NCBI GenBank assembly: GCA_023259115.1
Contig: JAHFQW010000003.1
Span: forward strand, 46,346 to 110,345
Length of the DNA stretch: 64,000 nucleotides
Direction: 5' to 3'
Origin: an archaeon
Lineage (GTDB): Archaea; Nanobdellota; Nanobdellia; Woesearchaeales; GW2011-AR9
Shown here: positions 13,065 through 60,777 of the stretch, piece by piece
Layout: the number at the start of each line of letters is the position of its first letter
How positions within the stretch are numbered: the stretch's first letter is position 1
The notes under the pieces: model-generated
What the model saw: only the letters and a program-made list of their open reading frames with translations
What the model was told of the DNA's origin: nothing
The model's database searches: none
Made by a program: the position numbers and the translations under genes

Positions 13065-13140
13065 TTGGTTTATTGGTTCAATGGTTTCTATAAATACTTT
13101 TAGGCAAATCTTTATTAATCTTGAAAATATGATTTAAATT

Positions 13141-13638
13141 ATGTCTATCAAAATTCTGATTACAGGGGGGACGTTTGATAAAGTGTATAATGAGCTTAAA
13201 GGGACGTTGACGTTTCGAGAGACGCATATTCGAGAGATGCTTAAGTTGGGAAGGGTGAATGCGCCTGTTGATGTGGAGAAGGTAGAGATGATTGATAGTT
13301 TAGATATGACCTTGAAAGATAGAGTGAAGATTTTTGAATATTGTCGTAAATCTAAAGAAAAACAGATTGTAATTACGCATGGCACGGATACGATGGTGCA
13401 AACAGCGATATTGTTAGGAAAAGAAATGAAGAAGTTACGAGGGAAAACGATTGTGCTCACGGGAGCGATTATTCCGTATGCATTTGGGAGTTCGGATGGG
13501 TTGTTTAATCTAGGTTGTGCGATGGGGTTTGTACAGGCGATGCCTAGCGGGGTGTATATTGCGATGAATGGGAAATGTTTTACATGGCAGAATGTGCGCA
13601 AAAATAAACGCAGAGGAGTTTTTGAGGAGAAGAGGTAG
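13141..13638 (+). CDS. Asparaginase-family protein, N-terminal domain only
   Basis: ILITGGTFDK and VITHGTDTMVQTA match the L-asparaginase / GatD N-domain signatures. Only 165 aa, so the C-domain is absent. Confidence 0.6.
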   Translation: MSIKILITGGTFDKVYNELKGTLTFRETHIREMLKLGRVNAPVDVEKVEMIDSLDMTLKDRVKIFEYCRKSKEKQIVITHGTDTMVQTAILLGKEMKKLRGKTIVLTGAIIPYAFGSSDGLFNLGCAMGFVQAMPSGVYIAMNGKCFTWQNVRKNKRRGVFEEKR

Positions 13639-13679
13639 GTTAAAGAATTACAAAAATATTTTCAAATAAAGAATTTGAC

Positions 13680-20488: not shown

Positions 20489-21784
20489 TTATTTCTTTTG
20501 TTTGATTTCTTTGATGCCATTCATGTAGGGCCAGAGAGCTTTGGGGATCTTTACAGTGCCTTCTTTGGTTTGATAGTTTTCCAGAATGGCAACGATGGGT
20601 CTTGTATCGGTCATAGCAGTATTATTCAACATATGGATATATTCTTTCTTGCCCTCTTTTGTGAGGTATTTTGTGTTAAGGGTGACGGCTTGATAATTAG
20701 TGCAGTTACTGCAGGAGGTTACTTCACGGTAATTGCCTTTTTTATCATTCTGTCCAGGCATCCAGGCTTCAATGTCGTATTGGAGAGCTTGTTTATTACC
20801 TAAATCGCCGGTACAGATTTGCACCACTCGAAAGGGGATGCCTAATTCTTCAAACATGTCTTCGGAATTTTGCTGTAGTTCTTGGAAATAAGTATAGGAT
20901 TCGGTGGGTTTACAGTAGACTATCTGTTCTACTTTGTTGAATTGATGGACGCGAAAAATGCCTTTATCATCACGGCCATGGGCGCCGAGTTCTTTTCTGA
21001 AACAGGCACTAAGGCCACAGATTTTCAAAGGTAGTTCGTCTTGGGTGAGGACTTGGTCTTTTTTTAATGCGACAAGGGGATGTTCAGAGGTGCCAATGAG
21101 ATACAAGTCTTCATCTTCAATTTTGTAAATGGTATCTTTAAATTCGCTTAAATTAACACCGCCTTCTAATGCGGCTTTGTTTAACATGTAGGGCGTTTGG
21201 ATGAGAGTGTATTTTTTCTTAAGTAAACGGTCAATGGCGAAGCGCTGTAGTGCTTGACTGAGAAGAACGGCTTCATTTTTGAGATAGTAAAAACGAGCAC
21301 CGGAGTTCTGGGCGGCGGTGTCTAAATCGATTAGATCTAAATCGAGGCCGAGTTCGATATGGTCTTTGATGGGGAAATTAAATTTAGGGATAGTGCCTAC
21401 TTTTTTAATTTCTTTGTTTTGGGAATCATCTTTGCCATCAGGAACGGAGGCGTGAAGAATATTGCCGATTTGCTTGAGGAGGGTATTGCGTTCTTTGAGT
21501 GAGGAGTCTACTTTGTCTTGGGTTTCTTTAAGGGTGTTGATGACGTTGCGCATTTCTTGGATTTTTTCATCTGCGAGAGCATTTTTTTTGTCTTTTTTGG
21601 CTTTATTTATTTCTTCTGAAACGAGATTGCGCTGGCGGTTGAGTTCTTCGAGAGTTTTAAGGGATGTTTTCCAGTTGTCATCTAGTTTTAATACTTGGTC
21701 AACGATAGATATATCGTGGTGACGTCTCTGTTCGGATTGTTTTACTACATCGGGATGTTCACGCACAAAGTGGATGTCTAGCAT
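20489..21784 (-). CDS. serS: Seryl-tRNA synthetase
   Basis: N-terminal coiled-coil arm; class II core motifs (FRKELGAHGRDDKGIFRVHQF, GSGLAxxR-like tail); 431 aa. Confidence 0.9.
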   Translation of the reverse strand: MLDIHFVREHPDVVKQSEQRRHHDISIVDQVLKLDDNWKTSLKTLEELNRQRNLVSEEINKAKKDKKNALADEKIQEMRNVINTLKETQDKVDSSLKERNTLLKQIGNILHASVPDGKDDSQNKEIKKVGTIPKFNFPIKDHIELGLDLDLIDLDTAAQNSGARFYYLKNEAVLLSQALQRFAIDRLLKKKYTLIQTPYMLNKAALEGGVNLSEFKDTIYKIEDEDLYLIGTSEHPLVALKKDQVLTQDELPLKICGLSACFRKELGAHGRDDKGIFRVHQFNKVEQIVYCKPTESYTYFQELQQNSEDMFEELGIPFRVVQICTGDLGNKQALQYDIEAWMPGQNDKKGNYREVTSCSNCTNYQAVTLNTKYLTKEGKKEYIHMLNNTAMTDTRPIVAILENYQTKEGTVKIPKALWPYMNGIKEIKQKK

Positions 21785-38908: not shown

Positions 38909-39475
38909 TCAAGAATATACCAATTCTATGACATCGCCAGCTTGGGGAGAATAGTCAAAGGCATAAGATTCTTTGTTGTTGATAATTAAAGACGCTTTAT
39001 GGCCTTCTTTGGTACAGTACGCTTGGTCAATAGTGAGGCATTGACTGTTGATTTTGAGATTGATTTTTTCAAAGATTTGAGTTAAGGTGAGGCCTTGGGC
39101 GTAGACTTTTACGGTCTCTTTATCAAAGGTGACAAAGAAGTTTTTGGTGTTGGCGCGAGCGGCAAAATCAATGGGTTTTGTTTCAATGGTGGCACGCAGA
39201 GTAAAAGTAATGGGGGTTTGTGTAAAAGAATAATAACTATTTTGATTGCAAACGTTTTGCTGGCATAAATTTTGAGAGCAAAGAATGGCAACAGGTTGGG
39301 AATCGCACGTTAACGCACAATCGGTATCGGTTTGGCATACTCGAGGTTCAACAGGGGTATTTTGTGCGGGACCGATATTATTGAGAAAAATAGGAACGGT
39401 GAATCCTATGACCACGAGAACTAGAAAAATAATCATGAGTACTTTTATGATGAATTGTTTACGTTGTGCTTTCAT
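38909..39475 (-). CDS. Small Cys-rich membrane-anchored / secreted protein
   Basis: N-terminal TM anchor (IIKVLMIIFLVLVVIGF); six or more cysteines in the mature part. Confidence 0.35.
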   Translation of the reverse strand: MKAQRKQFIIKVLMIIFLVLVVIGFTVPIFLNNIGPAQNTPVEPRVCQTDTDCALTCDSQPVAILCSQNLCQQNVCNQNSYYSFTQTPITFTLRATIETKPIDFAARANTKNFFVTFDKETVKVYAQGLTLTQIFEKINLKINSQCLTIDQAYCTKEGHKASLIINNKESYAFDYSPQAGDVIELVYS

Positions 39476-39559
39476 AGAGATAGCAAAAAAAGAAAGAGAA
39501 TAAAAAGGTTTCTCTTATTTTTGGGAAGTGATTGGGGTGTAGGTTATTTTTTACACAAC

Positions 39560-40813
39560 CTATTCTACAACTAATGTGCCAGACATGCCACGCCAATCTT
39601 CACAGCTGCTACAAGTATAGGTAAAAGTGCCTTTGGTTAGGGCATCAAATTCTATAGTAGTTGGTCCGGAAATCTCTTTTTGAACACCCAAGTCTTTTAT
39701 AGCGAAAGTGAATGCAATGTTTTCTGGCCGCAGGGTTAAAATGACGTGATCGTTTTGTTTGACAATAATTTTATCAGAGCTGAAAAACCATTTTTTTGCA
39801 CCTAATGAGACTTGGTGAGGATATGTTTTTACTGAAGTTGTTGATGTGCTGGAAGTTGAGGTCGGTGATGAAGTGGAGGCCTGAGCTTGCGTACTTGTTG
39901 ATGTACTTGGTGCTGTACCTTGAGTACTAATAGGGGGTGTAGATGTGCTGGCGGGTTTTGTTGCAGCTGTTGAAGATACATTGGTTGTTTTTGAAGTTGT
40001 GGATGTTGTTTTCGATGCAGATGAATCTTTTATGTTAGATGTAGATGAACTGGCAGATTTTGGATCTGCTTTTGAAGTATCTGAAACAGATTTTGAAACA
40101 GAATTATCTGAGGCAGTTAAATCGAAGCCTTGCGGAAAGAATAATTTACCATCTTTTGTGACGTAAGAGTCGACATCTTGACCGGCGACAGATAAAGTTA
40201 CTTTGTAAAAATTGCCGACATCAATGGTCTTTTTGGCAACGGCGGTAAAAGGAGGCTGCAAGAGCTTAGTGTTGACATACGTTAAAGCTTTTGCCTGTGC
40301 GTCGTTTAATGAGAGGGTTTGAAGGGGGGTTTCTTTGGTAAATCTAAAACCTTGCGTAAAAACGGCAAAGATGAGTAAGATTATCAAAATCCCGGTGAAT
40401 GCTTGCCAGGTAGAGGCATCTTTAAAGAAACTCTCATTGTCAGATGCAGGTTTACTTTTCTCTTCTGCCCAAGGGTTCACGGGGGAGGTGATATCTAAGC
40501 CGGAGGTTTTGATGGATTTGACTTCTTTGAGCTCTTCTTTGGCAGAGCTGATAGTCATTTCTTCATCAGTGTATGTTTCAACTTTGATCGGATCCATTTT
40601 GACTTCTGGGGTTTTAGCTTTTCCTGATTTGACACTAACTTTGGCAAGTGCTTCTTTTGCGGCTAATTCTTTGGCAGATTTTTCGGCGATGCGTTTTAGG
40701 GCTAGCGCTTTACGTTCATGTTTAGCTTTGAGTACCATATGTTCCTCCGGGGTTTCGTCCTCGACAAATTCTTCACTATAATCATTGAGCTCGTCTAGTT
40801 GTTTTTGCTCCAT
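39560..40813 (-). CDS. Membrane protein with S/T-rich linker and a C-terminal cupredoxin-like domain lacking a full copper site
   Basis: Acidic N-terminus; TM helix (ILIILLIFAVF); S/T low-complexity stretch; C-terminal FTYTCSSCEDWRGMSGTLVV resembles the cupredoxin C..H..M loop but lacks the His. Confidence 0.4.
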   Translation of the reverse strand: MEQKQLDELNDYSEEFVEDETPEEHMVLKAKHERKALALKRIAEKSAKELAAKEALAKVSVKSGKAKTPEVKMDPIKVETYTDEEMTISSAKEELKEVKSIKTSGLDITSPVNPWAEEKSKPASDNESFFKDASTWQAFTGILIILLIFAVFTQGFRFTKETPLQTLSLNDAQAKALTYVNTKLLQPPFTAVAKKTIDVGNFYKVTLSVAGQDVDSYVTKDGKLFFPQGFDLTASDNSVSKSVSDTSKADPKSASSSTSNIKDSSASKTTSTTSKTTNVSSTAATKPASTSTPPISTQGTAPSTSTSTQAQASTSSPTSTSSTSTTSVKTYPHQVSLGAKKWFFSSDKIIVKQNDHVILTLRPENIAFTFAIKDLGVQKEISGPTTIEFDALTKGTFTYTCSSCEDWRGMSGTLVVE

Positions 40814-40965
40814 CGATTTTCACCTTTTTTAAAGTTGAAAAGTGAGGAGGAAGAATAATTTATAAAGATTTAGCTAGTTTAACAGTTAGTTTTAACTCTA
40901 TTTATTTTTGGGAAAAGTGTAAAAAAAATGTTGAAAATTATTTATTGATTGATTGATTCGAGAAA

Positions 40966-41682
40966 TTATTTATTGGTTATGCTGACAATTTTTCCATCAC
41001 GAAGGGAAATAGTTCGCTGGGCATGACGAACTAATGATTGGTCGTGCGTGACTAAGATTATGGTTTTTTTTTCTTTTTCGTGCAAGGTGGTTAAGAGTTC
41101 CATGATTTGTTTACCGGATTGGGAATCGAGGTTGCCAGTTGGTTCATCAGCTAAGATTATCTCGGGATTGTTTACTAACGCTCGAGCAATGGCAACACGC
41201 TGCTGCTGGCCACCAGATAATTCGTTGGGACGATGATGCATTCTATCGGCTAATCCCACAAGGGCGAGTAATTCTTTGGCACGCTCGATACGTTGTGTTT
41301 GGGGAACATTTTGAAAAATGGTTGGGAGGATGACATTTTCGAGGGCACTGAGAGTGTGGATGAGGTTGAATTGTTGGAAAACAAAGCCAATTTTTTTTCC
41401 ACGTAATTGAGCCAGAGCCGATTCGGAGAGATGACTGAGGTCTTTTTTTTCAAGCAGGATATGACCGCGAGTGGGAATGTCGAGAATGCCGACAAGATTC
41501 ATTAACGTTGATTTACCGCTTCCAGAGGGGCCTAAGATTGTGACAAATTCTCCTTTATAAATTGATACAGAGACGCCTCTGAGTACATCAAGTGATTCCG
41601 AACCCATTTGGTAGGTTTTCCAAACATCTTGTAACTCGAGGAGGATTTCTTTTTTGGGGAAATGGGTTTTTGCAGAGTTCAT
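40966..41682 (-). CDS. ABC transporter ATP-binding protein (MacB/LolD family)
   Basis: Walker [10 protein letters not shown]; signature [15 protein letters not shown]; Walker [12 protein letters not shown]. Confidence 0.85.
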
Positions 41683-41772
41683 GTTGAATTCTATTTTTCT
41701 ATTTGAGTATATTAATATTTAACGAATTGTGAGGATTATTCAAAGTTCTCTATAAATATTTATTCTAAATAT

Positions 41773-42990
41773 TCATTCGTACCTCAAACTATCTATAGCA
41801 TTGAGTTTAGAGGCTTTGCGAGCAGGGGTGAAGCCGGATATGCAGCCAATGATGAATGAGAAAAAGATGATGGCGAGCAGTTGTGTCCATTGAAATTGGA
41901 TGACAAGTAGTGATCCGATAAATTGGCTAAATATATATTCAATGATTTTGGCAAAGAGCATGCCTATGAGAACTCCGAGAATACCACCAATAAGACCATA
42001 TAAGCCTGATTCAATTAGAAATAAAGTTAAGATTTGCCGGTTGGTGGCGCCGATGGCTTTAAACAGGCCAATTTCTTTGGTGCGCTGCAGAACGGCGGTG
42101 AACATGGTGTTCATGATACCAATACCTCCGACAAAGAGAGAAATGGCGGCGATGCCTATGAGTACAACTTGGACGATGTTAAGAACGGTGTCAAAAGTAG
42201 AGACGAGTTGCTGGGGTGTTTGAATACTGAAGTCTTCTTTATCTTCTTTGAGGTGACGCGATTTGCGAAGTTCTTTTTTTATTTTTGCGTCCATGAGATT
42301 AAGGTCTTCTCCGGGATTGATTTGGACGAAAATAAGACCTAACTCATTGTTTTTTTGAAATAATTCTTGATAGGTGTCTATTGGAATGATGGCGGATTTA
42401 TCATCTTGGGGAGAGCCGGTTTTTTGCCAGAAGCCAATTATTTTGAATTCGTGTTCTTTAATGAGGATTTTATTTCCCAACGAGATATCTTTACCAAAGA
42501 GGTCGGGATTGGTATATTCACTGCCTAGAACGACTTTATAACGATCCCCGGAGGCAATATTACGTCCTTGGGCAATTTTATAACTTTGAGCACTGTTAAT
42601 GAGAGTATTTTCCTCTTTGTTGGTGGGAAAACCGTCTACAAAAAAGTAGCGTGCCTCGTTGTTGAATTCGATTTTACTGCTGCTGTATAAGAAGCCGGCG
42701 GCTTGTTTTACTCCGGATACTTTGCGGATAACATCCATGTCATGGGTGGTTATTTTTATCGCGTCAATGGAGAGACCGGCTGTGAGAGGATTTCCTTTGG
42801 CGGTGATGATTAATTTGTCGTTGCCTAATGCGGAAACTTGGCCGGTGATGGCTTGTTGAAGGCCTTGGCCAAGATTGATTAAAGAAACAACGGAGGCAAT
42901 GCCTATAATGATCCCAAAGAGAGTGAGAAGGGAGCGAAGTTTACGATTATGCATCTCTTTCCAGGGGATGAGGAAGTAGTCTTTGATCAT
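41773..42990 (-). CDS. ABC transporter permease, FtsX / MacB-like
   Basis: N-terminal TM helix, large extracytoplasmic domain, C-terminal 3-TM FtsX domain (QRTKEIGLFKAIGAT). Confidence 0.8.
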   Translation of the reverse strand: MIKDYFLIPWKEMHNRKLRSLLTLFGIIIGIASVVSLINLGQGLQQAITGQVSALGNDKLIITAKGNPLTAGLSIDAIKITTHDMDVIRKVSGVKQAAGFLYSSSKIEFNNEARYFFVDGFPTNKEENTLINSAQSYKIAQGRNIASGDRYKVVLGSEYTNPDLFGKDISLGNKILIKEHEFKIIGFWQKTGSPQDDKSAIIPIDTYQELFQKNNELGLIFVQINPGEDLNLMDAKIKKELRKSRHLKEDKEDFSIQTPQQLVSTFDTVLNIVQVVLIGIAAISLFVGGIGIMNTMFTAVLQRTKEIGLFKAIGATNRQILTLFLIESGLYGLIGGILGVLIGMLFAKIIEYIFSQFIGSLLVIQFQWTQLLAIIFFSFIIGCISGFTPARKASKLNAIDSLRYE

Positions 42991-43066
42991 GTGGTTTATG
43001 GTCTGTTGTTTTTTTTATGATTAGTTTTATTATATTATGATGATATCGTGATGATATTTTACGATA

Positions 43067-44278
43067 TTACTTACGCAAGGCATCGATGACTTGGAGTTGC
43101 GCGGCTTGTTTAGCAGGGAGAACACCGGAGATAATCCCCACACTAAATGAGAATAATAGGGCGGAGAGAAGCAGCCAGGAGGATATTTCGGCGTGGATTA
43201 AGACTGATTCAAATATTTGATAGGTGATAAATTCGACTAGTTTACTGATGAGGATACCTAGAGTTACGCCGATGATACCTCCTAAAAGACCAAGCATGCC
43301 GGATTCTATGAGGAAGAGGATAAGAATTTCTCGACGTGTGGCGCCGATGGCTTTGAGCAGGCCGATTTCTTTGGTGCGTTCTAACACGGCGGTGTACATG
43401 GTGTTCATGATGCCAACGCCTCCAACAAGTAAAGAGATACTGGCGATGCCTATGAGAACTCCTTCGATTATGAGAAGAATGGTATTAAATGTGGCAATAA
43501 GAGTTTGCGGAGTTTGAATGATGAAATCTTCTTTGCTCTTCTCTACATTACGGGATTTACGTAGTTCTTTTTTAAGTGAATCGGCAACGCTTGCAAGATC
43601 GGCGCTTTTTTGAATGCGAATGGCAATAATATCATAATCATCTTTAATTCCAAGCAGAGAACGGTAAGATTCCTCGGGAATAACGAGGGTGTCATCACGC
43701 TGGGGATTACCTGATTTTTTTAAAATGCCCACAATAGTAAATTGTTTTTGCTGGAGGAGAATTTTATCACGCAAAATGGGATCATGTTCAAAAAAGCCGT
43801 GCGCGAGATTATATCCTATTAAGACGCCAGGGCTGTTTTTTTCAGGAAATTTGCCTTCTTGAATTTGATAATCGTTTGCTTCGATTACGAGGTCTTGTTC
43901 TTGGGAATTTTCGGGATAAGAAACAGCATAGGTATATTTTTGTTCGTTTTTGAATTCTAATTGAGTTATACGAATTAGACGACCAACGGCGAGATCAACG
44001 TCTTTGGTTCTATCAATGGCGATTTTATCTTTTTTTGTGAGAGGAGACGCGACAGCCGTGCCAGGGGGGCCAAAGCCTGAACCTGCGGCTTGTACGATGA
44101 GCTTATCAGAGCCGAGTTTTAAGAATTGAGACGCGATGGCGTTTTGCAGGCCTTGGGAGAGGGTGATTAAAGCGACAACGGCAGCAATACCCACAAAGAT
44201 GCCAAGCATGGTGAGCCAGGAGCGCAGTTTACGTTGTTTGACACTGCGGTAAGCTAACTTGAAATAATCTTGTATCAT
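43067..44278 (-). CDS. ABC transporter permease, FtsX / MacB-like (second copy)
   Basis: Same architecture (ERTKEIGLLKAIGAT). Start trimmed to MIQDYFKLAYR to remove the run-on into the upstream gene. Confidence 0.75.
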   Translation of the reverse strand: MIQDYFKLAYRSVKQRKLRSWLTMLGIFVGIAAVVALITLSQGLQNAIASQFLKLGSDKLIVQAAGSGFGPPGTAVASPLTKKDKIAIDRTKDVDLAVGRLIRITQLEFKNEQKYTYAVSYPENSQEQDLVIEANDYQIQEGKFPEKNSPGVLIGYNLAHGFFEHDPILRDKILLQQKQFTIVGILKKSGNPQRDDTLVIPEESYRSLLGIKDDYDIIAIRIQKSADLASVADSLKKELRKSRNVEKSKEDFIIQTPQTLIATFNTILLIIEGVLIGIASISLLVGGVGIMNTMYTAVLERTKEIGLLKAIGATRREILILFLIESGMLGLLGGIIGVTLGILISKLVEFITYQIFESVLIHAEISSWLLLSALLFSFSVGIISGVLPAKQAAQLQVIDALRK

Positions 44279-44292
44279 TGATAGTTGAAGAT

Positions 44293-45543
44293 TTATTGAT
44301 ATTTGAGGATCTTTTTGAGAGTGAGGTTGTATTTTCTGTAGGCAACATAACCACCAATGGAGAGAAAGAGTATTACGATGTAGACCCACGTGTAATTGGT
44401 GGGAATTTTTCCGTATGTTTCAAGTTGAGAAGTGGTGTAGAGGTTCATGGTTAGGTCGAATTGCTGCTGGAACTGTTTGCCATTGGCATCAAAGTATTTG
44501 AGTTTAATGGGAAGATGAAGAAGCTTTGTGTTGGGAGTGATGTAGATTTCTAATTCTTCACTTTGGGTGTCGTCGGCATCGATATTTCCTATATAAAAAT
44601 AATCGTTGGGGGAGAGAAGAGTGTATTCGTCACTTGGTAGAACATATAGTTGTAGGTAACGAATGTCGGCGGTGCCGGGATTGGCGATTTCAATGGTGAT
44701 TTTACCGTTTTCTGCGGCTTGCAAAACGGAGGTTTTTTTAATGAAAGGTTGCACTTTTGGGATGTCACCTAAAGAGATGGCGAGAAGTTCTTGGGTTGTG
44801 AATAATTTACCTTTCTCGTCATAATAGCTGATTTCAAGAGGGACTTTGTATAGGCCGGCAGCGCCTTTGGGGTCGGCGATGAGATTGAAGGTGATGGCTT
44901 TTTGATAGCCAGAGGGTAACTGAGCGATAATTCTTTCTGAAGAGGATTGGTAGGGAGCGAAAGGAATGCCTGAAGAAGTGAGATTGAGTTTGAATTTTAA
45001 ATTGCGTAAGAGAGAATCTGCAAGATTTTTGATTGTTATGGTGGCTTGCGTTGATTCACCGGGTTTGATTTGTTCAGGATCAAAGGAGATAGAGGTAATA
45101 TCTAAAATGGAGTCTTGGGTTTGAATGTGGAGGAGAAATTCGTTGTTGGTGTAACTTATGCCGGATTCACCAAATTTTACGTTGAGTTCGAGTTCGAGAT
45201 CACCTTCGGTTGCTTGTTCATCTATTTTTAATTTGTATTCAACGATAATGGCATTAGCACCGGAGTTGAGGGCACGAAGTTTACCAATATTTTTTTGAGC
45301 AACATCGCCGTATAAACTCACGGGGTATTGCGGAAGAAGGGTGACTAGGGCATCGTTATTTGTCTCACTGCCATTATTCTCAATTTTGAATTTGACGGTG
45401 ACTATATCGCCAGGCTGTACGGGGTCGGGTGTTTGTGACATTAAGGTTACGTGAATACTAGGAGTTGAGGATGTGCCGTAGGCGGAAACGAGAGGAAATA
45501 TACAGAGAACGAGGAAAATGAAGAGGGGGAATTTTTTTGCCAT
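44293..45543 (-). CDS. Exported, C-terminally anchored protein; first gene of the ABC-transporter operon
   Basis: Signal peptide (LFIFLVLCIFPLVSAYG); beta-rich repeats; C-terminal TM helix (VYIVILFLSIGGYVAY). Confidence 0.35.
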   Translation of the reverse strand: MAKKFPLFIFLVLCIFPLVSAYGTSSTPSIHVTLMSQTPDPVQPGDIVTVKFKIENNGSETNNDALVTLLPQYPVSLYGDVAQKNIGKLRALNSGANAIIVEYKLKIDEQATEGDLELELNVKFGESGISYTNNEFLLHIQTQDSILDITSISFDPEQIKPGESTQATITIKNLADSLLRNLKFKLNLTSSGIPFAPYQSSSERIIAQLPSGYQKAITFNLIADPKGAAGLYKVPLEISYYDEKGKLFTTQELLAISLGDIPKVQPFIKKTSVLQAAENGKITIEIANPGTADIRYLQLYVLPSDEYTLLSPNDYFYIGNIDADDTQSEELEIYITPNTKLLHLPIKLKYFDANGKQFQQQFDLTMNLYTTSQLETYGKIPTNYTWVYIVILFLSIGGYVAYRKYNLTLKKILKYQ

Positions 45544-51652: not shown

Positions 51653-53407
51653 TTGCTGATGGCGTTTGATGAAAAATTACAGAGAGTATATAGGCAGAGA
51701 CGAGAGGAGGCGTGGTTGAAATCTCGTATGATTGAGGGGATACCAAGTTTGCAAGATGATTTTTCTGAAGTGAGACATTGCGTAGTTTCTTCTGAGGAAG
51801 GAATTGAGGCGTTAGTGGGAGATGCGCAAGTTATTTTGATGACGGGAGGATATTTTGGGGATGAAGCGAAAGGAAAATGGGGGAATGCGCTGGCAACAAA
51901 AGTGGACATGGTGGTGCGACCTAATTCGGGAGCAAATACGGGACGAACTATTTGTTACAAAGCAGAGAAGTTGAGTTTACATCTGGTACCAACGGGGTTG
52001 CTTGAAGGGATAAGAGCGATTATTGGATCTGAGACGGTTGGGGATCCGATTAGTTTAGATGAAGAGGAGTTGGCGTTATTTCGAGCGAGGGAAATTGATT
52101 ATAGTTTGCTGGAGGTGGGAAATTTTTTTATTACAACACCGTATCACCGCATTATGGATGTGCTGGGGAGCGCATTGAATGGTTCGACGGGAGTGGGGAT
52201 TATGCCAACGCATAAGTCTATTAAAGGAAAATCGTGTCCCAGACTAGATGATTTGTTTAATAGCTCTACTCATTTACGAAGAGTTCTTTCAAAAGATCAT
52301 GAGAATTATGAAGGCTTTTTGGAGACAAAATTATTGAATCGAGATATGGTAGTTGAGCGTCTTTTAGAAATACAACAACGAAATAGACGAATAGTGCCAG
52401 AGTATGTTTTAGAGTTTGCCAAGTCGCGTGAACCAATTGAATTTTTAAATGAGTTATACGCAGAAAGAGTAGTGAGAAATATACATTTTCCCAAACGGGT
52501 GGATGCGAGTTATGAAGTGAAGAGAGCGCTACAACGAGGAGAGCGGGTGTTATTAGAAGTGACACAGAGTTATCTCTTGAGCAATGCACGGCAACAAGGA
52601 TATCGCTATTCGACATCGGCAGATGTGACGGCGTTAGGGGCGTTGACGTCACTGGGGATTTCTCCGATGCGCTATTCTACGCGGGTGATTAATGTGAATA
52701 AGTTTCCTGGAGCGTCACGAGTGGGACCGGGAGATATTCCAGGTTCTTTTGTGGCACAAAATCATTTTGCGGAGAATAAGATTACGTCACTGAGCGAGTT
52801 AGGAGAGGCTTGTGTTGATTTTAATGCGATTTGTCAGATGTATTTTAGTGCGATTGGGAAGAATGGGATTTTGCAACCGGTTACCTATACAGATGCAACG
52901 GGAACGTATGAAATTGGAGAAGCGATGGCGATTGCCAATGCGCGTACGTTTGATGAGAGAGGAGCAACAACGGGCAAGCCACGGATTACGGGTTTATTTG
53001 ATTGTGTGTTGGGCAGACTCGTGGCAGAGGAACAAGGACCGTATACGGTTATTTCTTGCATGGATAGAGGAAATGTGTGTGACAAAGTGGGATTGGTGGT
53101 AGGGTATGTGGTGTCGTTACCAGAAGAGGTTGAGAGGATTGATTGTAATGGAATGATGTATACAACGGGCAAAGTGATTGTGCCTGGAGATCAAGTACCA
53201 ACAAGTGATGTACTGCAGTATTGTGTGCCAATTATTAAAGTGATGGAAGGTTGGAAGAGCACGCCACTTGGGAATTTGCATCCAGGAGAAGAGCTGCCTT
53301 TGGCAGTTTCTAGTGTTATTGGGGCAATTGAGAAATATACGGGATTTTTGGTTATGGCAATTGGAACGGGACCGGAAACCAATGAGGCGTTGTATTTGAA
53401 GCGGTAA
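51653..53407 (+). CDS. Adenylosuccinate-synthetase-like protein (divergent PurA family, 584 aa)
   Basis: GDEAKGKW (vs GDEGKGK); SGANTGRT in place of GGHNAGHT; NGSTGVGIMPTH (vs IGTTGRGIGPAY); GATTGKPRITGLFD (vs GATTGRRRRTGWLD); IGTGPETNE (vs ISTGPDRTE). Has an N-terminal extension and internal insertions. Confidence 0.55.
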   Translation: MLMAFDEKLQRVYRQRREEAWLKSRMIEGIPSLQDDFSEVRHCVVSSEEGIEALVGDAQVILMTGGYFGDEAKGKWGNALATKVDMVVRPNSGANTGRTICYKAEKLSLHLVPTGLLEGIRAIIGSETVGDPISLDEEELALFRAREIDYSLLEVGNFFITTPYHRIMDVLGSALNGSTGVGIMPTHKSIKGKSCPRLDDLFNSSTHLRRVLSKDHENYEGFLETKLLNRDMVVERLLEIQQRNRRIVPEYVLEFAKSREPIEFLNELYAERVVRNIHFPKRVDASYEVKRALQRGERVLLEVTQSYLLSNARQQGYRYSTSADVTALGALTSLGISPMRYSTRVINVNKFPGASRVGPGDIPGSFVAQNHFAENKITSLSELGEACVDFNAICQMYFSAIGKNGILQPVTYTDATGTYEIGEAMAIANARTFDERGATTGKPRITGLFDCVLGRLVAEEQGPYTVISCMDRGNVCDKVGLVVGYVVSLPEEVERIDCNGMMYTTGKVIVPGDQVPTSDVLQYCVPIIKVMEGWKSTPLGNLHPGEELPLAVSSVIGAIEKYTGFLVMAIGTGPETNEALYLKR

Positions 53408-53534: not shown

Positions 53535-53798
53535 TTAAATAATATCTTCTTCAGCAACGACGATGAAATCGCCGGTGGCAATGACCGCAGAGAAAGGAAT
53601 CAAGACTTGGCCTTCTTTGGTGCGTTCTAATTCCATGCGTTCGGTATAAGTGGTAGGATTGCGCAAGACGACGTGAATTAATTCACCTGAGCCGACTTCG
53701 AAAATCATGTCACCAACTTCTCCGAATTTCTTGCCTGATTTTGATACTACGGTTTTCCCGAGTAATTCCTTAGAAAAAAGCTTGTCTTTTTCTGCCAT
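53535..53798 (-). CDS. PRC-barrel domain protein
   Basis: LLGKTVVSKSGKKFGEVGDMIFEVGSGELIHVVL matches archaeal stand-alone PRC-barrel proteins of about 85 aa. Confidence 0.6.
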   Translation of the reverse strand: MAEKDKLFSKELLGKTVVSKSGKKFGEVGDMIFEVGSGELIHVVLRNPTTYTERMELERTKEGQVLIPFSAVIATGDFIVVAEEDII

Positions 53799-54123: not shown

Positions 54124-54504
54124 TTATTTGATGGGGGCGGAGAGGTAATTATCATAGAAGACGTTGCGAATGTCTTTTTTGAGGTCGCGCGCGATGCCTT
54201 GGAACAGATTGGCATCAAGACGGCTTTTCTGGAATAAGGACATGCGAACTTTGGATTCGACTTCACGGCTGATTTTGTCCATTAATTTGGCAGGATCGTT
54301 GCCGCCTTTGCGGAGTTCTCGGCCAAGAATGCCATGCTGCTCTTTAAATGCGTCCATGAAGGAGGTGAGGAATTCGTTTTGGTATTTAGATACGCCAATG
54401 AAGTTGGATTCGTTACCGGTGATGACGATGTTTTTTCTTGATGCGCGATTGAACGATTTTAATAGGCTTAGTTCAAATTCGGTTAAGAACGATTGGGTTA
54501 TCAT
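54124..54504 (-). CDS. Hypothetical protein (126 aa)
   Basis: Clean ORF; no motif recognised. Confidence 0.35.
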   Translation of the reverse strand: MITQSFLTEFELSLLKSFNRASRKNIVITGNESNFIGVSKYQNEFLTSFMDAFKEQHGILGRELRKGGNDPAKLMDKISREVESKVRMSLFQKSRLDANLFQGIARDLKKDIRNVFYDNYLSAPIK

Positions 54505-54684
54505 TAGGAATCACACTCTTTTTGGTTTTTTATTATCTGATTAGTTATCTGATTAGTTTACTATATGTTTGTGTTTAATTAAGAGAATTATATAAACTTT
54601 ATGCGGATGGAGAAGATAGGTTCATGGGGAATTAAAAGATATTTTTGAGGAATATTAATAAATAAGACGAGTTGTAATTTAATT

Positions 54685-55491
54685 ATGTGGGTTTACAATC
54701 TTGATCCGGTGCTTGTGCACTTAGGGCCAGTTGAAATACGATGGTATGGGTTAGTGTATGTGGCGGGGTTCTTTTTTGCAGTCTGGTGGTTGCATTATAT
54801 GGCGAAAAGAGGGCAAGTTGAGTTGAGCTCGGATGATATTTGGGATATGTTGTTTTATTTGATGATAGGGGTATTGATCGGTTCGCGGTTGTTTGAGGTG
54901 TTTTGGGAGCCGAGTTATTATTTGAGCAATCCGCTGCGATTTTTGAAGATTTGGGAAGGAGGGATGAGTTTTCATGGAGGATTTGTGGGGATTATTACGG
55001 CAACAGGGTGGTATTGTCGGAAGAAGAAGATGAATTTTTGGAAGATTGCGGATGCGATGAGTTTTCCAACTCTGTTGGCGTTGGCATTGGGACGGGTGGC
55101 AAATTTTGTTAATGGTGAATTAGTAGGACGAGTGTGGGGTGGTTCTTGGTGTGTGGTGTTTCCAGATTATGATATGCAATGTCGACATCCATCCATTTTA
55201 TATGCGGCGGGGCAGAGATTAGTTGTTGCGGTGTGGCTGGCATGGTTGACGGTGCGTTGGGAGTTTAGGGCAGGATTTATTTTTTGGAATTTTGTTTTGC
55301 TGGAAGGAATGGGTAGATTTATTATTGATTTTTGGCGAGAGGATACGTTGTATTATGGGTTTACGATGGGGCAGATATTTAGTGCGATGATGGTTGTTGT
55401 GGCGGTGTGGATGTTGGTTTTGAGGCATCGAGGGGATGTGAAGCGGTTGTTTTTGAATAGGAAAGAGCTTGAGAGATTAGAAGAAGCCTGA
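54685..55491 (+). CDS. lgt: Prolipoprotein diacylglyceryl transferase (bacterial Lgt)
   Basis: LGPVEIRWYGLVYVAGFFFAVWW (cf. IGPVALHWYGLMYLVGF); WEGGMSFHGG (identical to the E. coli WDGGMSFHGG core); GRVANFVNGELVGR; HPSILYAA (cf. HPSQLYE). Confidence 0.8.
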   Translation: MWVYNLDPVLVHLGPVEIRWYGLVYVAGFFFAVWWLHYMAKRGQVELSSDDIWDMLFYLMIGVLIGSRLFEVFWEPSYYLSNPLRFLKIWEGGMSFHGGFVGIITATGWYCRKKKMNFWKIADAMSFPTLLALALGRVANFVNGELVGRVWGGSWCVVFPDYDMQCRHPSILYAAGQRLVVAVWLAWLTVRWEFRAGFIFWNFVLLEGMGRFIIDFWREDTLYYGFTMGQIFSAMMVVVAVWMLVLRHRGDVKRLFLNRKELERLEEA

Positions 55492-55579
55492 AGGATAGAA
55501 GATGTGTGTTCTTGATGTTTTGTAAGATAGAGAGAGAGGAATATTTTGAGAAACTATTATAAAGTAGTTATCGGTTGGG

Positions 55580-57397
55580 TTGAGCATGGTTGATTTGGCA
55601 GGATTGATTGCATCTTACAACGGATTGGATTATGTGTATAGCGCAAAACCGGGAAAGTATACTTTTGTAGCGCCGAGTTCTTTTACAGAAAATGGTCTGA
55701 GGCAGAGAGGGGGGAGAGTTGTAGTTATAGAACAGGGAGAGAATTGTATTACTTCTCTGGTTATGGATAATGGGCATGGTTCAGCGATTATTACACCAAA
55801 TAATAAGGGGCAGACGTATATGGTATTGAGGTATGTACCTTATATTGTGAATATTGTTGAAAAAAAAGGAAAAAATGCGTCTTTACAAGAATGTAAAATA
55901 ATTCCCACAACGCTCTATGATGTGGAATTAGTCAAAGTGATAAGTGATGTAGGGGTTTTTGAAGAGCGGTGTGAAAAAGAGTTTGAACAGTGTACCTTTG
56001 CCGCGATGCGAAGTGGTTTTTTATCACAGTTATTATTACCTAAAACGAAGACAGCAACACTTTCAAGAAAAGTGGATCTGAATTCATTAGATTTGTTGAT
56101 GCAAGAAGCTCGGCGATATAAACTCTTAGATCATGAGCTGGAATTTATTGTTGGCCAACGGCGAGATTATGTGAAAAGAATGATGGACACAGCGCTGGCA
56201 AATTTAGTTTTTTTGCAAAAAGATACACCCCATTTTACGCAATTATGGGCAGATGTGAGAAGAGTATTAAGAGAAATACCTCTTCCTACGACACCAGATG
56301 AAATGAGGGAAGTTGAGAAGTATTACAAACCAGAAGTGAGACGCTATTTTGATCTAAAAGGAGCTACTTTTTTTACTGATGTGAAAGAGCATCGCTACAT
56401 TTTGAATTTATTTCTAGCATCAGAAGGCAGAGATATGAAGAGATTTGGTTCATTACAGTGGCAAGAAGAGGTGTATGGAGAGATAATACCATCGGTGCAA
56501 CACTATGTGGATAGCCAAAAAGCGATGTTTGAAGGGGGGGGAAAAACTCTCCCTGCAATACTCTTAGAGCAAACAAGATTATTAGATGTTTATCATCGCG
56601 CTAAAACACAATATCAAGAAATGATTAATCTTTTTGTAGCGCATAATATTCGTTTAGTGTTTAACCGAGCATTGCCGTTCATTAAGAAAGGAAAAGATAC
56701 GACGGAAGCAATGGCCAATGGCATGGTTGGCTTACGCAAGGCGGCGATGAAATATAAATGGGAGCGAGGGTATAAATTTTCAACCTATGCGGCGTGGTGG
56801 ATCAGACAAAATATTGATCGAGAAGATATGGATACAGGGGAGACGATTCGCAAGCCGGTGCATCTGCGTACGTTCTTAGATAAGTTGCATTATGTACAAG
56901 GAAGATTTTGGCAACAGCAATGCCGATATCCTACTTTGGAGGAATTAGCAGAAATAGTTGATGCGCCTGTACGCAGGATCAAACGGGCGTTAGAGAGTCC
57001 GGGTGAATGCCGATCACTCTATGATAAAGTGGGTGATCTAGATGATCGAGATGGAGCATCAGTTATTGATTTTATTGATGGAAGTGATGCAGAGCAGTTG
57101 AGAGGATTTGTACATGTGCCTTTAGATGTACATACGGCGGCTGAGGGAAGTAATATGGGTTTAAAAGTGCACCAGATGTTAATATTATTAACCCCTAGAG
57201 AGGAATCTGTGATACGCTATCGTTTCGGGATTGGTGTAGAAGAGAAGACACTTGAAGAGGTGGGACAGATGATGGGGCTTACGCGGGAGCGGATTAGACA
57301 AATTGAGATGATCGTAATTAAAAAATTAGGTAGGCGATTGGAGAGTAGAGGTATTACGGCGGATTATTTGGATAGAGAGAGGAATAAAGAGACTTGA
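55580..57397 (+). CDS. Sigma-70-family (primary-like) sigma factor with an approximately 350-aa N-terminal extension of unknown nature
   Basis: Region 2: NIRLVFNRALPFIKKGKDTTEAMANGMVGLRKAAMKYKWERGYKFSTYAAWWIRQNI (RGYKFSTYA[T/A]WWIRQ is the group 1/2 sigma hallmark). Region 3 start: IRKPVHL. Region 4.2: LLTPREESVIRYRFGIGVEEKTLEEVGQMMGLTRERIRQIEMIVIKKL. Confidence 0.75.
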   Translation: MSMVDLAGLIASYNGLDYVYSAKPGKYTFVAPSSFTENGLRQRGGRVVVIEQGENCITSLVMDNGHGSAIITPNNKGQTYMVLRYVPYIVNIVEKKGKNASLQECKIIPTTLYDVELVKVISDVGVFEERCEKEFEQCTFAAMRSGFLSQLLLPKTKTATLSRKVDLNSLDLLMQEARRYKLLDHELEFIVGQRRDYVKRMMDTALANLVFLQKDTPHFTQLWADVRRVLREIPLPTTPDEMREVEKYYKPEVRRYFDLKGATFFTDVKEHRYILNLFLASEGRDMKRFGSLQWQEEVYGEIIPSVQHYVDSQKAMFEGGGKTLPAILLEQTRLLDVYHRAKTQYQEMINLFVAHNIRLVFNRALPFIKKGKDTTEAMANGMVGLRKAAMKYKWERGYKFSTYAAWWIRQNIDREDMDTGETIRKPVHLRTFLDKLHYVQGRFWQQQCRYPTLEELAEIVDAPVRRIKRALESPGECRSLYDKVGDLDDRDGASVIDFIDGSDAEQLRGFVHVPLDVHTAAEGSNMGLKVHQMLILLTPREESVIRYRFGIGVEEKTLEEVGQMMGLTRERIRQIEMIVIKKLGRRLESRGITADYLDRERNKET

Positions 57398-57488
57398 GTT
57401 TATCTCTTGTATTTTTTGATTGAGTAACATTTATTAACAAAAAGAGGATTTGATCAAATAGAAGTAAAGATTAATTTGAGGTGTCTCT

Positions 57489-57938
57489 ATGAAAAAAATA
57501 ATTTTAGGAATAACTTTGATGATGGTGTTGTTTGTGGCGGCGTGTAGTACACCGCAAGCAGAGACGACATCGAGTACGGTGCCCGTACAGAAAGCGGCAG
57601 TGCCTGCGACTCCAGCTGTTTCTGAGAATTCAAGCAATTTGGTGAGCGCGCCAGAATCAGCGAGTAGTGCTGAGGTGAAGAGCAATCCATCGACCACAAC
57701 GGTGAGTATTAAAGGGTTTAAGTTCCAACAAAACACGGTGGAAATTAACGCAGGAGATACTATTGAATGGGTAAATGAGGATAGTGCACCACATACGGTG
57801 ACTTTTGAGGATACGAATATTTTAGATGAGAAATTGTCTTCAAAGGGTAAAGTGAGCCACACGTTTACAGAGAAGGGAACGTTTGAATACCACTGTTCAT
57901 TTCATCCAAATATGAAAGGCATTGTTGTTGTGAAGTGA
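57489..57938 (+). CDS. Cupredoxin (plastocyanin/amicyanin-like blue copper protein) with a bacterial-type lipobox signal
   Basis: Signal ...VLFVAAC (lipobox VAAC); S/T/P linker; C-terminal copper site H(PHTVTF)...EYHCSFHPNMKGIVVV (His, Cys, His, Met). Confidence 0.7.
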   Translation: MKKIILGITLMMVLFVAACSTPQAETTSSTVPVQKAAVPATPAVSENSSNLVSAPESASSAEVKSNPSTTTVSIKGFKFQQNTVEINAGDTIEWVNEDSAPHTVTFEDTNILDEKLSSKGKVSHTFTEKGTFEYHCSFHPNMKGIVVVK

Positions 57939-58097: not shown

Positions 58098-58238
58098 TTA
58101 TAATCTTTTTTTCATTTTGGCTAAGAGGATATAATCTTCTTTTGTGCCACTGCCGCCTTTGCATTTGAGCTCGAGGGCAGCGACTTCGGCTTTGACATCT
58201 TTTAATCGTTTTTCAACGTCTTTTTTGCTCATGGTCAT
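58098..58238 (-). CDS. Small basic coiled protein (46 aa; absent from the ORF track)
   Basis: Hand translation: MTMSKKDVEKRLKDVKAEVAALELKCKGGSGTKEDYILLAKMKKRL, followed by the GTTATTCAAAGT-type 3' element. Function unknown. Confidence 0.3.
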   Translation of the reverse strand: MTMSKKDVEKRLKDVKAEVAALELKCKGGSGTKEDYILLAKMKKRL

Positions 58239-59013: not shown

Positions 59014-60777
59014 TTAGTTATAATACCATTTGTTTTCGACGCGTTGTTCACGATCTTTGACAGAGTCTGGTTTATTGACACGAGGGCGATGGGATAAGAG
59101 GTCTCGACGCAGAGTTATGTTGAGTTCTTGCAAGAAGAGGTTCATGCCATCAGCCATGCTAAATGGGCCGCGCAAGGTGCCACTCTTGGCAGGAATTCCT
59201 GTGAAGACCATGAGGCGATCAGAGAGGTAGTCGAGAAATAAGAGGTCGTGATCGACGACGAGAATGGTTAAGTCGCGTTCGTAGGCAATGTTTTTGATGA
59301 TTTTGGAGATTAAGAGACGTTGTTCAACGTCGAGATAGGCGGATGGTTCGTCTAATAGGAAGAGCTGTGCATCCTGGGATAAACAGTAGGCGATGGAAAC
59401 GCGCTGGAGTTGGCCGCCGGAGAGTTCGGATAATTTTTGAGCGAAGAGGGATTCGAGGTTTAATGGTTTTATGAGCTGGTTGGTGTATTTTTCGTTGGCG
59501 CGAGTGAGAAAGTCAGAGACGAGGACATCGGATTCGGTTTCTAGATATTGTGGTTTATATGCGACTTTGACTTCACAGCTGAGTTCGCCAGAATCGGGTT
59601 TGATCAAACCGGCGAGCATTTTGATGAATGAGGTTTTGCCAATACCATTTTCGCCTAAGATGCCGATGATTTCGTTTTTGTTGAGACTGCCAGATTCGCT
59701 GTTTAATGTGAAGTTGCCTAATTGTTTGTGGAGGTTATTCCAAGAAAGAAGAGGGGTGCGGATGCCTTTTTTGTTATCTAGGCCCTTATCAAAACTTATG
59801 GCGCGGTCACGAATGCGCATGTTTTCTTCTTTCAAAAAGCCCTCTAAGAACGCGTTGATGCCTTCGCGGCTGGTTTTGAGACCAGAGACGATACCAAAAG
59901 CGCCTTCGGCACCATACATGATGTTGATGACATCGGTCATGAAATCGAGAATGATTAAGTCGTGCTCAACGACGAGAGTGGCAACTTGGGGTGTTGTGAG
60001 ATTGCGAATGAATCGGGAAGTGTTGATGCGTTGTTTGATATCCAGAAATGAGGTTGGTTCGTCGAAGAGGTAGAGGTTAGCGGATTTGAGGGAGGCGGCG
60101 GCAATGGCGGCGCGTTGAAGTTCTCCGCCGGAGATGGTGGTGATGGGGTTGTCTAGAAAGTTTGTGAGTTGGAGCTGTTCACTGATTTTTTGGAGGTTAT
60201 TGTCTTTGTCGACTTTTTGGAGAAGTTCACGAACGGTGCCGGAGAATTGTTTAGGAATCAAATCAACTTGCTGGGGTTTATAGGAAAAGGTAATTTTATT
60301 TTGATGTAATTGTTCAATGAATTTTTGCATCTCGGTGCCTTTGAAGTAGGCGAGGATCTCTTTGAATTCAGGTGGTTTTTGCCAGTTGCCAAGATTAGGT
60401 TGAATGATGTTGGAGAGAACTTTAAATGCGGTGGATTTGCCTAACCCGTTTCTGCCAACGATGCCAGTTACTTGACCAAAGAGGGGAGTGGGGAGTGAGT
60501 AGAGTTCGAATAAATTTTCACCATAGCGATGCAGAGGAGAGCGGTTTAATGTTTCAGGGAGATTAATGATTTCAATGGCACCAAAAGGACAGCGTTTCGG
60601 ACAGATGCCACAGCCGGTGCAGAGGAATTCGTCGATTCTGGCTTTTGTGGTTATGGGGTCAGGGGTGATACAATCAACACCGGCGCGGTTGACAGGGCAT
60701 AATTTAGCACAGAGATAGTTGCCACATTCATTAGGATGGCATTTGTTGCGATCAATTATGGCTATACGTTTGCGCAT
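59014..60777 (-). CDS. abcE1: ABCE1 / RNase L inhibitor ribosome-recycling ATPase
   Basis: N-terminal twin 4Fe-4S domain (CHPNECGNYLCAKLCPV; CTGCGICPKRCPFGAIE) plus two ABC cassettes (GRNGLGKST / GENGIGKTS; LSGGELQR / LSGGQLQR). Start trimmed to MRKRIAIIDRNKC at 60777, removing an 84-aa spurious extension. Confidence 0.9.
   Translation of the reverse strand: MRKRIAIIDRNKCHPNECGNYLCAKLCPVNRAGVDCITPDPITTKARIDEFLCTGCGICPKRCPFGAIEIINLPETLNRSPLHRYGENLFELYSLPTPLFGQVTGIVGRNGLGKSTAFKVLSNIIQPNLGNWQKPPEFKEILAYFKGTEMQKFIEQLHQNKITFSYKPQQVDLIPKQFSGTVRELLQKVDKDNNLQKISEQLQLTNFLDNPITTISGGELQRAAIAAASLKSANLYLFDEPTSFLDIKQRINTSRFIRNLTTPQVATLVVEHDLIILDFMTDVINIMYGAEGAFGIVSGLKTSREGINAFLEGFLKEENMRIRDRAISFDKGLDNKKGIRTPLLSWNNLHKQLGNFTLNSESGSLNKNEIIGILGENGIGKTSFIKMLAGLIKPDSGELSCEVKVAYKPQYLETESDVLVSDFLTRANEKYTNQLIKPLNLESLFAQKLSELSGGQLQRVSIAYCLSQDAQLFLLDEPSAYLDVEQRLLISKIIKNIAYERDLTILVVDHDLLFLDYLSDRLMVFTGIPAKSGTLRGPFSMADGMNLFLQELNITLRRDLLSHRPRVNKPDSVKDREQRVENKWYYN

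Follow-up and report, generated by a model that had tools for sequence, protein, structure and literature searches.

Genes at the lgt locus

The subject of this analysis is lgt, a gene for a homologue of Lgt, the prolipoprotein diacylglyceryl transferase known from bacteria, in a 64,000-nt stretch of archaeal DNA (the window; coordinates are window positions). A sequence-only reading of the window had described three open reading frames (ORFs) on the plus strand within 54685-57938, for Lgt, a sigma-70 factor and a cupredoxin. The ORF listing and profile searches located all three as described. The features of this neighbourhood are listed below; numbers such as L083 denote recovered loci.

53535-53798, minus strand: PRC-barrel protein gene (Pfam PRC), left anchor of the Lgt neighbourhood
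54124-54504, minus strand: soluble 126-aa protein, conserved, divergent from lgt; no Pfam or NCBIfam match; orthologues adjoin Lgt in L083, L084, L099 and L183
54685-55491, plus strand: lgt, prolipoprotein diacylglyceryl transferase homologue, 268 aa, seven transmembrane segments (profiles, AlphaFold2 model)
55586-57397, plus strand: RpoD-derived sigma-70 family protein, 603 aa (domains and alignment)
57489-57938, plus strand: type-1 (blue) copper cupredoxin, 149 aa, predicted lipoprotein (Pfam, copper ligands)
57489-57545, plus strand: Sec-type signal peptide of the cupredoxin with lipobox V-A-A-C; Cys19 codon at 57543-57545
58098-58238, minus strand: conserved 46-aa ORF, coiled-coil-like (MTMSKKDVEKRLKDVKAEVAALELKCKGGSGTKEDYILLAKMKKRL), no family match; right edge of the variable slot described below
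59014-60777, minus strand: RLI/ABCE1, archaeal/eukaryotic ribosome-recycling ATPase, right anchor (NCBIfam NF009945, 795 bits vs cutoff 469)

The Lgt sequence scored 224.9 bits against Pfam LGT PF01790 (cutoff 24.9), with residues 8-245 aligned to profile positions 1-239 of 240, and 186.7 bits against the NCBIfam equivalog TIGR00544 'lgt' (cutoff 118.9). Its sole sequence match in the PDB was E. coli Lgt (5AZB, E = 4.8e-35). The AlphaFold2 model, built with 22 homologues, had a predicted local distance difference test score (pLDDT) of 83 and a predicted template modelling score (pTM) of 0.81. A Foldseek search of this model against the PDB gave a single significant match, again 5AZB (E = 8e-13, TM-scores 0.74/0.70). 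The profiles gave Lgt and no other membrane protein family. The full-length scores above cutoff and the sequence and fold matches to 5AZB upheld the presence of Lgt in an archaeon.

The WEGGMSFHGG core pointed out in the sequence-only reading is present in Lgt. The N-terminal motif had been called HWYG-type and is actually IRWYG; arginine at that place is also the majority residue in bacteria (52/68). The family signature occurs as G136 R137 V A N140 F V N G E145 L V G148, together with R211 and R218. This motif and both arginines (E. coli R143, N146, E151, G154, R239 and R246) were invariant in 29/29 archaeal and 68/68 bacterial Lgts. The HGG motif (MSFH97GGF; E. coli H103) and W20-Y21-G22 (E. 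coli Y26) were found as well. Close homologues, 56-97% identical, formed at least 120 distinct clusters at 90% identity, and every one with a named source was labelled Woesearchaeota or Nanoarchaeota.

Profile searches identified PolB, Orc1/Cdc6, Rad50, TrmB, aIF2-alpha and RLI/ABCE1 as archaeal genes of the same window. The source is a Woesearchaeota-type (GTDB Nanoarchaeota) DPANN archaeon. RLI/ABCE1 lies 1.1 kb from the cupredoxin, and archaeal markers stand within 1-2 kb on either side of the three-gene stretch. No tRNA or Rfam feature was found in the 64 kb.

To see how far the locus is conserved, the window proteins were mapped onto loci recovered by scanning metagenomes and genomes (one scan each) and by looking up nine homologues as exact proteins. 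The genome-contig scan with the Lgt alignment gave mostly bacteria among the matches listed, with at least four archaeal loci. Lgt with RLI downstream was found in 17 Woesearchaeal lineages, where Lgt was 52-71% identical to that of the window. The conserved order was NTP-transferase, GlxRS, a hypothetical protein, AdSS, PRC, Lgt, slot and RLI, the part upstream of Lgt being shared by most of the lineages. The PRC-barrel gene (72-95% identical) adjoins Lgt in L083-L085, L087, L095-L097, L182 and L184, and RLI was 59-80% identical in all syntenic loci. The contigs concerned include ones of 1.56 Mb, 406 kb, 298 kb and 125 kb; in one locus the Lgt block lies beside a ribosomal-protein/SecY operon.

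In a neighbour-joining tree, the Lgts of Woesearchaeota and Nanoarchaeota formed one clade apart from about 70 bacterial Lgts. The best bacterial identities to the archaeal Lgts were about 40-43% among the matches listed. Since Lgt keeps a fixed place across lineages in which it is only 52-71% identical, and since the archaeal sequences form one clade, the gene was probably acquired long ago and then inherited vertically. One old transfer from bacteria followed by vertical descent is the simplest reading.

What lies between Lgt and RLI differs from lineage to lineage, and this interval is here called the variable slot. Its commonest occupant is a lipobox cupredoxin, and the sigma gene is inserted as well in one subclade. 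The 46-aa ORF at the right edge adjoins RLI in most loci; in the window a GGCT gene stands between the two. An ORF matching it in size, strand and position was called beside RLI in at least five other Woesearchaeal lineages.

Upstream in the conserved block, the adenylosuccinate synthetase gene (51653-53407, plus strand) is unusually long, its product having 582-584 aa vs about 416-430 profile positions. In L182 (5554-7698) and L184 (5516-7717) the annotated product also carries HAD-hydrolase domains (714-733 aa), and the gene stands beside adenylosuccinate lyase.

Slot cupredoxins and the Lgt active site

The cupredoxin matched PF13473 Cupredoxin_1 (47.3 bits) and PF00127 Copper-bind (43.9 bits), and its type-1 copper ligands are H102 and C136-x2-H139-x2-M142. 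It scored below the equivalog cutoffs of named subfamilies (amicyanin 57.6 vs 110, halocyanin domain 30.8 vs 93.8). The signal peptide, MKKIILGITLMMVLFVAAC, has the layout MKK-IILGITLMMVLF-VAAC with the cysteine at position 19. It combines a positive n-region, a hydrophobic h-region and [LVI][ASTVI][GAS]C at positions 15-35, as expected of a lipoprotein signal. The canonical lipobox proposed from the sequence is thus present, on a protein with a full set of type-1 copper ligands.

A cupredoxin, or a cupredoxin-like gene without ligands, occupies the slot in 10 of the 17 lineages. All ten have a lipobox cysteine (VAAC, VVAC, LVSC, ITGC, LVGC, LSSC, LVAC twice, LVSC and IVGC), as do 16/23 homologues overall. 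The mature domains of the slot cupredoxins have diverged down to 26-45% identity with the lipobox retained, and this retention is the best available evidence for Lgt activity on a cupredoxin substrate. The co-location of enzyme and plausible substrate, first remarked on for the window only, is a conserved pairing. A strict lipobox filter on 276 kb of Woesearchaeal sequence returned 11 ORFs, 7 of which were slot cupredoxins; the remainder include a gene with a faint thioredoxin match and a 736-aa protein. The conserved adjacency and the lipobox suggest an enzyme-substrate relation between the two proteins. It is probable that Lgt works as a lipoprotein transferase, with the cupredoxin as its substrate.

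The active-site residues of 29 archaeal and 68 bacterial Lgts were compared (E. coli numbering). Y26, H103, D129, R143, N146, E151, G154, R239 and R246 were invariant in both groups. Y235, present in 67/68 bacterial Lgts, is replaced by E in 26/29 archaeal ones. E243, present in 68/68 bacterial Lgts, is D in 29/29 archaeal ones. At position 202, where E. coli has E, most archaeal sequences have A or S. Their L6-7 loop has 11 residues vs 16-17 (5-6 shorter), so nothing in it corresponds to W256 and Y259. The archaeal clade also has a cysteine pair of its own, Cys156/Cys166.

The donor-glycerol pocket of E. coli Lgt consists of F102, R143, E202, Y235, R239, W256 and Y259, and the hydroxyl of Y235 hydrogen-bonds the C3 hydroxyl of the donor glycerol (Mao 2016, PMC4728403). 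Four of these seven pocket residues are changed across the archaeal clade. The bacterial-type Y235 is kept in the deepest archaeal branch (L006) and in L017, so the change at this position came after the transfer. The remodelled pocket suggests an adaptation to the lipid of these cells, although the same changes could signal an altered function.

The Lgt of L017 (9998-10825) is 40% identical to that of the window and keeps both Y235 and E243 of the bacterial type. Its contig is labelled as an uncultured Methanosarcinales metagenome-assembled genome and encodes aIF5A and several very acidic predicted proteins. This Lgt may be a separate acquisition or a deeper branch.

A mechanism can be proposed by analogy with the E. 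coli enzyme, from which the transfer chemistry is taken (Mao 2016, PMC4728403). The lineage would have taken up a bacterial lgt long ago and held it at a fixed position between the PRC-barrel gene and RLI. The cupredoxin precursor would be exported by Sec. Lgt would bind an anionic glycerophospholipid via R137 and R211 (E. coli R143 and R239) and pass its diradylglyceryl group to Cys19 of the VAAC lipobox, where the thiol is the acceptor. The blue copper protein would so be tethered at the outer face of the membrane, and a peptidase would then cut off the signal peptide. As a whole, the best explanation, which we consider likely, is a long-resident, vertically inherited lgt whose product lipidates the cupredoxin of a variable slot, the genes being separately promoted and no co-transferred island being involved.

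Several points weigh against this explanation. Y235 and E243, which belong to a buried hydrogen-bond network, are both replaced in the archaeal Lgt. In E. coli, Y235F/L/S and E243A/Q/R fail complementation, E243D not being among the mutants (Mao 2016, PMC4728403). Activity is therefore not guaranteed, and the archaeal Lgt was classed as a variant and not as a plain member of the family. A lipobox is found in only 1 of about 5 secreted proteins of the window. Neither Lsp (PF01252) nor Lnt was found among the window ORFs by Pfam or among the annotated neighbours in 9 loci, a search that did not extend to whole genomes. A hidden Markov model (HMM) from three LspA sequences matched nothing in 98 sequences (97 loci including bacterial ones, and the window); this search had no positive control and is uninformative. 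The Lgt tree is a neighbour-joining tree on a biased bacterial sample, and it fixes neither the donor nor the exact number of transfers.

The first alternative is that the Lgt homologue was kept and repurposed, no longer lipidating proteins and instead, for example, hydrolysing or remodelling host-derived phospholipids. The clade-wide change at two residues whose tested E. coli substitutions do not complement, together with the shortened L6-7 loop, would fit this. The HGG peptide-binding motif, the signature motif and both catalytic arginines are nevertheless invariant in 29/29 archaeal Lgts, conserved lipobox proteins lie directly beside the gene, and related loci contain further lipobox ORFs. 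Repurposing is thus unlikely. If Lgt does lipidate the cupredoxin, as we prefer, a tentative proposal concerns the donor: from the pocket residues, the archaeal clade may use archaeal sn-2,3-diether lipids (archaetidylglycerol) to anchor lipobox proteins, which we regard as possible but doubtful. Such a donor would possibly be scavenged from a host, and Lgt would then replace or supplement AliA/AliB in the order.

Other genes near the locus may tell something of the lipid context. In three lineages (L097:18201-19286, L183:20743-end and the P0028 locus), geranylgeranyl-reductase-like genes are found 9-10 kb downstream of Lgt, a hint of isoprenoid lipids but no proof. The Lgt-RLI slot of L184 contains a gene for a DAGK_cat-like lipid kinase (12661-13695), and the slot gene of L088 (9769-10893) has a similar N-terminus.

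Elsewhere in the window, 38909-45543 (minus strand) encodes an ABC ATPase together with two MacB_PCD/FtsX permeases, a secreted protein of CARDB/S-layer-like type and another cupredoxin-like protein, which is long (39560-40813). LolCDE was considered for the ABC cluster at 40966-44281 and rejected: the lolCE scores were 76.7 and 59.2 vs 362 bits and the LolD score 251 vs 308, and the best match was a generic MacB. A MacB-type permease and CARDB-like pair also occurs near Lgt in L004 and the P0028 locus.

The sigma-70 protein and the origin of the three genes

The sigma ORF opens at TTG 55580, but translation probably begins at ATG 55586 (603 aa), the start that gene calling gave in two independent assemblies. 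Pfam Sigma70 regions 2, 3 and 4 were found at residues about 350-590, in agreement with the sigma factor reported between Lgt and the cupredoxin. The protein consists of a lineage-specific N-terminus of about residues 1-125 (predicted beta-rich, low confidence), a region-1.2-like motif at about 178-187, a helical spacer and regions 2-4. The C-terminal half aligned with RpoD at 1e-41. The motifs RGYKFSTYAAWWIRQ (-10 recognition/melting), IRKPVH and TRERIRQIE (-35 contacts) were invariant among four homologues. By eye, 'YKLLDHExEF' near residue 180 resembles region 1.2; Pfam r1_1 and r1_2 gave no match in the protein. The best models scored 165-178 bits vs cutoffs of 354-555, below the RpoD equivalog level. 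In region 2.2, the positions matching E. coli Q406, E407, N409 and M413, which we take to be core-binding residues, are changed to A, N, M and R. More speculatively, a sigma protein with intact DNA-contact but altered core-binding residues may work with a non-bacterial polymerase.

A full-length search of a 5.8-billion-protein database was dominated by bacterial RpoD, and the N-terminal half was used instead. An exhaustive HMMER search with residues 1-345 against 1.84 billion representatives gave only three true relatives, all 650-aa sigma proteins, so the N-terminal extension is lineage-specific. It is unrelated to any family. The two relatives with retrievable context both sit in the same Lgt-RLI slot. 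The AlphaFold2 model from a 4-sequence alignment had a mean pLDDT of 58, and its N-terminal beta-rich region, at about 50, is too weak to interpret. A viral-contig scan with the sigma protein found only phage sigma domains of at most 40% identity, none bearing the extension. MzaA, the MZA anti-phage sigma, was rejected as an identification: the score was 193 bits vs a cutoff of 800, and the sigma domain alone aligned (profile positions 469-716 of 726).

The sigma gene occupies the slot in 4 of the 17 lineages (the window, L083, L098/L099 and L100/L101). Within this subclade the sigma protein is 32-37% identical, vs 58-71% for Lgt and about 80% for RLI; it has evolved about three times faster than the neighbouring genes. 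Sigma and cupredoxin occur together only in the window's lineage, the cupredoxin being missing from 3/4 sigma-bearing lineages. In L083 (3987-5902), the closest relative, the sigma orthologue is split into two frames, one with 172 aa of the N-terminal part and one with 428 aa of the sigma part; a frameshift, a genuine split of the domains or decay to a pseudogene could account for this. The L083 lineage has no cupredoxin.

Transcription signals were then considered. A strong match to TTTAWATA was seen for 27 window genes, and for 15 of these it falls between -28 and -32 relative to the ATG, the pattern expected of archaeal TATA boxes with leaderless mRNAs. Near-consensus TTTATATA boxes at -28 to -32 were seen for about 15 genes (for example 4953-5783, 8825-11293 and 20489-21784), and mostly leaderless transcripts are therefore implied in this organism. 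The elements around the three genes are as follows.

54652-54665, plus strand: A/T-rich TATA-like element of lgt (ATATTAATAAATAA), about 25-33 nt upstream of the ATG, with TATTAATA at about -32; putative promoter, below the strong-match threshold
55556-55563, plus strand: putative archaeal TATA box of the sigma gene (ATTATAAA), -30 to -23 of the ATG; predicted leaderless or near-leaderless transcript
57412-57417, plus strand: T6 run, possible archaeal oligo-T terminator, 15 nt past the sigma stop codon
57478-57483, plus strand: Shine-Dalgarno-like sequence GAGGTG, 6-11 nt before the ATG of the cupredoxin gene

Because each gene has its own upstream element, lgt, sigma and cupredoxin look separately expressed from archaeal signals, with no operon layout.

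These results bear on whether the sigma protein is a dedicated regulator of lgt and the cupredoxin, the three genes forming one regulatory module. The adjacency of Lgt and sigma is held in four lineages although sigma has diverged to 32-37% identity, and the gap between them is 19 nt in L099. Inherited synteny accounts for this adjacency equally well. Moreover, 13/17 Lgt-bearing lineages have no sigma gene at the locus, and most sigma-bearing ones lack the supposed cupredoxin target. Sigma-70-type promoter matches were not enriched around the locus (20 observed vs 15.2 +/- 4.4 expected), and no bacterial RNA polymerase core gene was found in the window or the annotated neighbouring loci examined. 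A dedicated regulatory role is improbable.

The composition of the three-gene stretch was compared with that of its flanks. The plus strand of the window contains 26.1% G and 13.9% C, giving a GC skew of +0.305 with no sign change over 64 kb. The mean coding-strand skew at third codon positions (GC3 skew) was +0.69 for 24 plus-strand genes and -0.58 for 29 minus-strand genes; with opposite signs on the two strands, the bias is mutational and not coding-driven. The GC3 skew was 0.86 for Lgt, 0.59 for sigma and 0.59 for the cupredoxin, and these genes are therefore fully adapted to the host. Their codon-usage distances do not exceed those seen among the other plus-strand genes. The three genes thus match the host in GC content as well as in GC3 skew and codon usage.

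The sequence-only reading took the three genes for one lateral acquisition of a bacterial module, and a recent joint transfer has to be weighed. The genes are adjacent on one strand, and the best non-archaeal matches of Lgt and sigma are bacterial, at about 40% identity among the matches listed. Pfam and NCBIfam scans gave no integrase or transposase near the genes, nor is there a tRNA in the window. The features of a recent genomic island are thus missing: composition is host-like, Lgt has a fixed locus in 17 lineages, and mobility genes are absent. The genes do not travel together either, with Lgt in all 17 lineages, sigma in four and the trio in the window's lineage only, and each has its own upstream elements. 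The cupredoxin had also been counted as bacterial; it has 21 detectable relatives, the sole named one is a Woesearchaeota protein, and in these comparisons it shows no bacterial affinity. The claims of a single module, of its lateral acquisition and of a bacterial cupredoxin were therefore dropped, and recent joint transfer is very unlikely.

The chance that a bacterial fragment was fused to archaeal DNA by mis-assembly or mis-binning is close to nil, although contamination is common in DPANN metagenome-assembled genomes and Lgt and sigma are typical of bacteria, because the junctions recur both in assemblies made independently from different runs and across 17 related lineages (the 1.56-Mb contig among them), the three genes share the extreme strand bias of the host, and archaeal markers flank them closely on both sides. 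The proteins and their gene order were identical in Logan assemblies of two runs (L001 and L002), an ENA assembly and a 126-kb NCBI contig, so chimerism was excluded, as was the concern that the three genes might lie on a separately assembled contig.

The strand asymmetry was also observed in L083, L084, L087, L090 and L092, and the sign of the skew in one and the same syntenic block can be plus or minus (L083 -0.24). In other Woesearchaeota loci the skew is close to zero, and 77 bacterial loci had a median absolute skew of 0.036. The bacterium Ch65 of the candidate phyla radiation (CPR) has 29.8% C and 15.0% G on one strand over its whole chromosome (PMC7143001). A literature search found no report of such asymmetry for archaea. 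In the window, the GC skew does not switch at orc1/cdc6 (19169-20236, minus strand). A BRO-N domain protein (17262-18098, minus strand) is encoded about 1 kb from RNase HII and Orc1/Cdc6; the BRO-N family is typical of viruses and mobile elements.

Significance and comparison with known systems

The sequence-only reading had stated that no Lgt/Lsp/Lnt machinery is described in archaea. The literature agrees: no archaeal Lgt or Lsp homologues have been reported (PMC6098224, PMC12462473, PMC13631571). Reviews and primary papers up to August 2026 describe no archaeal Lgt, Lsp or Lnt, and this has been used to argue that archaeal lipids need other enzymes (AliA/AliB). A full-text search for Lgt in DPANN, Woesearchaeota and Nanoarchaeota gave no paper reporting an archaeal Lgt. 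The automated annotation of GenBank and IMG already labels these proteins Lgt. What is new is therefore not the gene family itself but the overlooked annotations, the conserved context and the variant active site. The sigma part was already known, since Castelle et al. 2021 (PMC8204110) reported a sigma-70 family, 'fam00359', in Woesearchaeota, with the archaeal context verified and no anti-sigma factors. Searches for Lgt, Lsp and fam00359 in supplementary files of that paper gave nothing.

That Woesearchaeota have, throughout a clade, a vertically inherited Lgt with a variant active site, linked to a lipobox blue copper protein, is moderately surprising. Lgt is unmistakable in a whole, widespread order of archaea, where the gene keeps a fixed place on the chromosome and the copper protein is conserved beside it. 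This raises the question of what lipid serves a bacterial-type Lgt inside an archaeon, and whether the changes in the glycerol-binding residues are an adaptation to that lipid. It also bears on DPANN membranes and on how far archaea can domesticate bacterial envelope machinery. If archaeal diether lipids were used, a bacterial enzyme would have crossed the 'lipid divide'.

E. coli Lgt (5AZB/5AZC; Mao et al. 2016, PMC4728403) shares with the window Lgt the seven-transmembrane fold (TM-score 0.74), the GRxxNFxNGExxG signature, the HGG motif with H103, and Y26, D129, R143, N146, E151, G154, R239 and R246. The two differ in sequence, with about 31% identity, and in host, which for the window Lgt is a single-membrane archaeon. 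The presumed task, lipidation of the lipobox cysteine on secreted archaeal proteins, is shared by AliA/AliB of Haloferax volcanii (arCOG02177; Hong et al. 2025, PMC12462473).

The window sigma shares regions 2, 3 and 4 and intact -10 and -35 contact motifs with fam00359 and bacterial RpoD, and with fam00359 also the verified archaeal context and the lack of a nearby anti-sigma. It differs from both in its N-terminal extension of roughly 340 residues, its altered region 2.2 and its place between lgt and RLI.

Halocyanin, a lipobox blue copper protein, is a classic archaeal lipoprotein according to the passage of PMC13631571 that cites it. Like halocyanin of Natronomonas pharaonis (Mattar et al. 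1994, as cited there), amicyanin and plastocyanin, the window cupredoxin is a small type-1 copper protein with His/Cys/His/Met ligands; on the same source, the N-terminal lipobox signal peptide is shared with halocyanin and other small blue copper proteins. It differs from these proteins in having a Sec-type and not a Tat-type signal, and in its genetic linkage to a bacterial-type Lgt.

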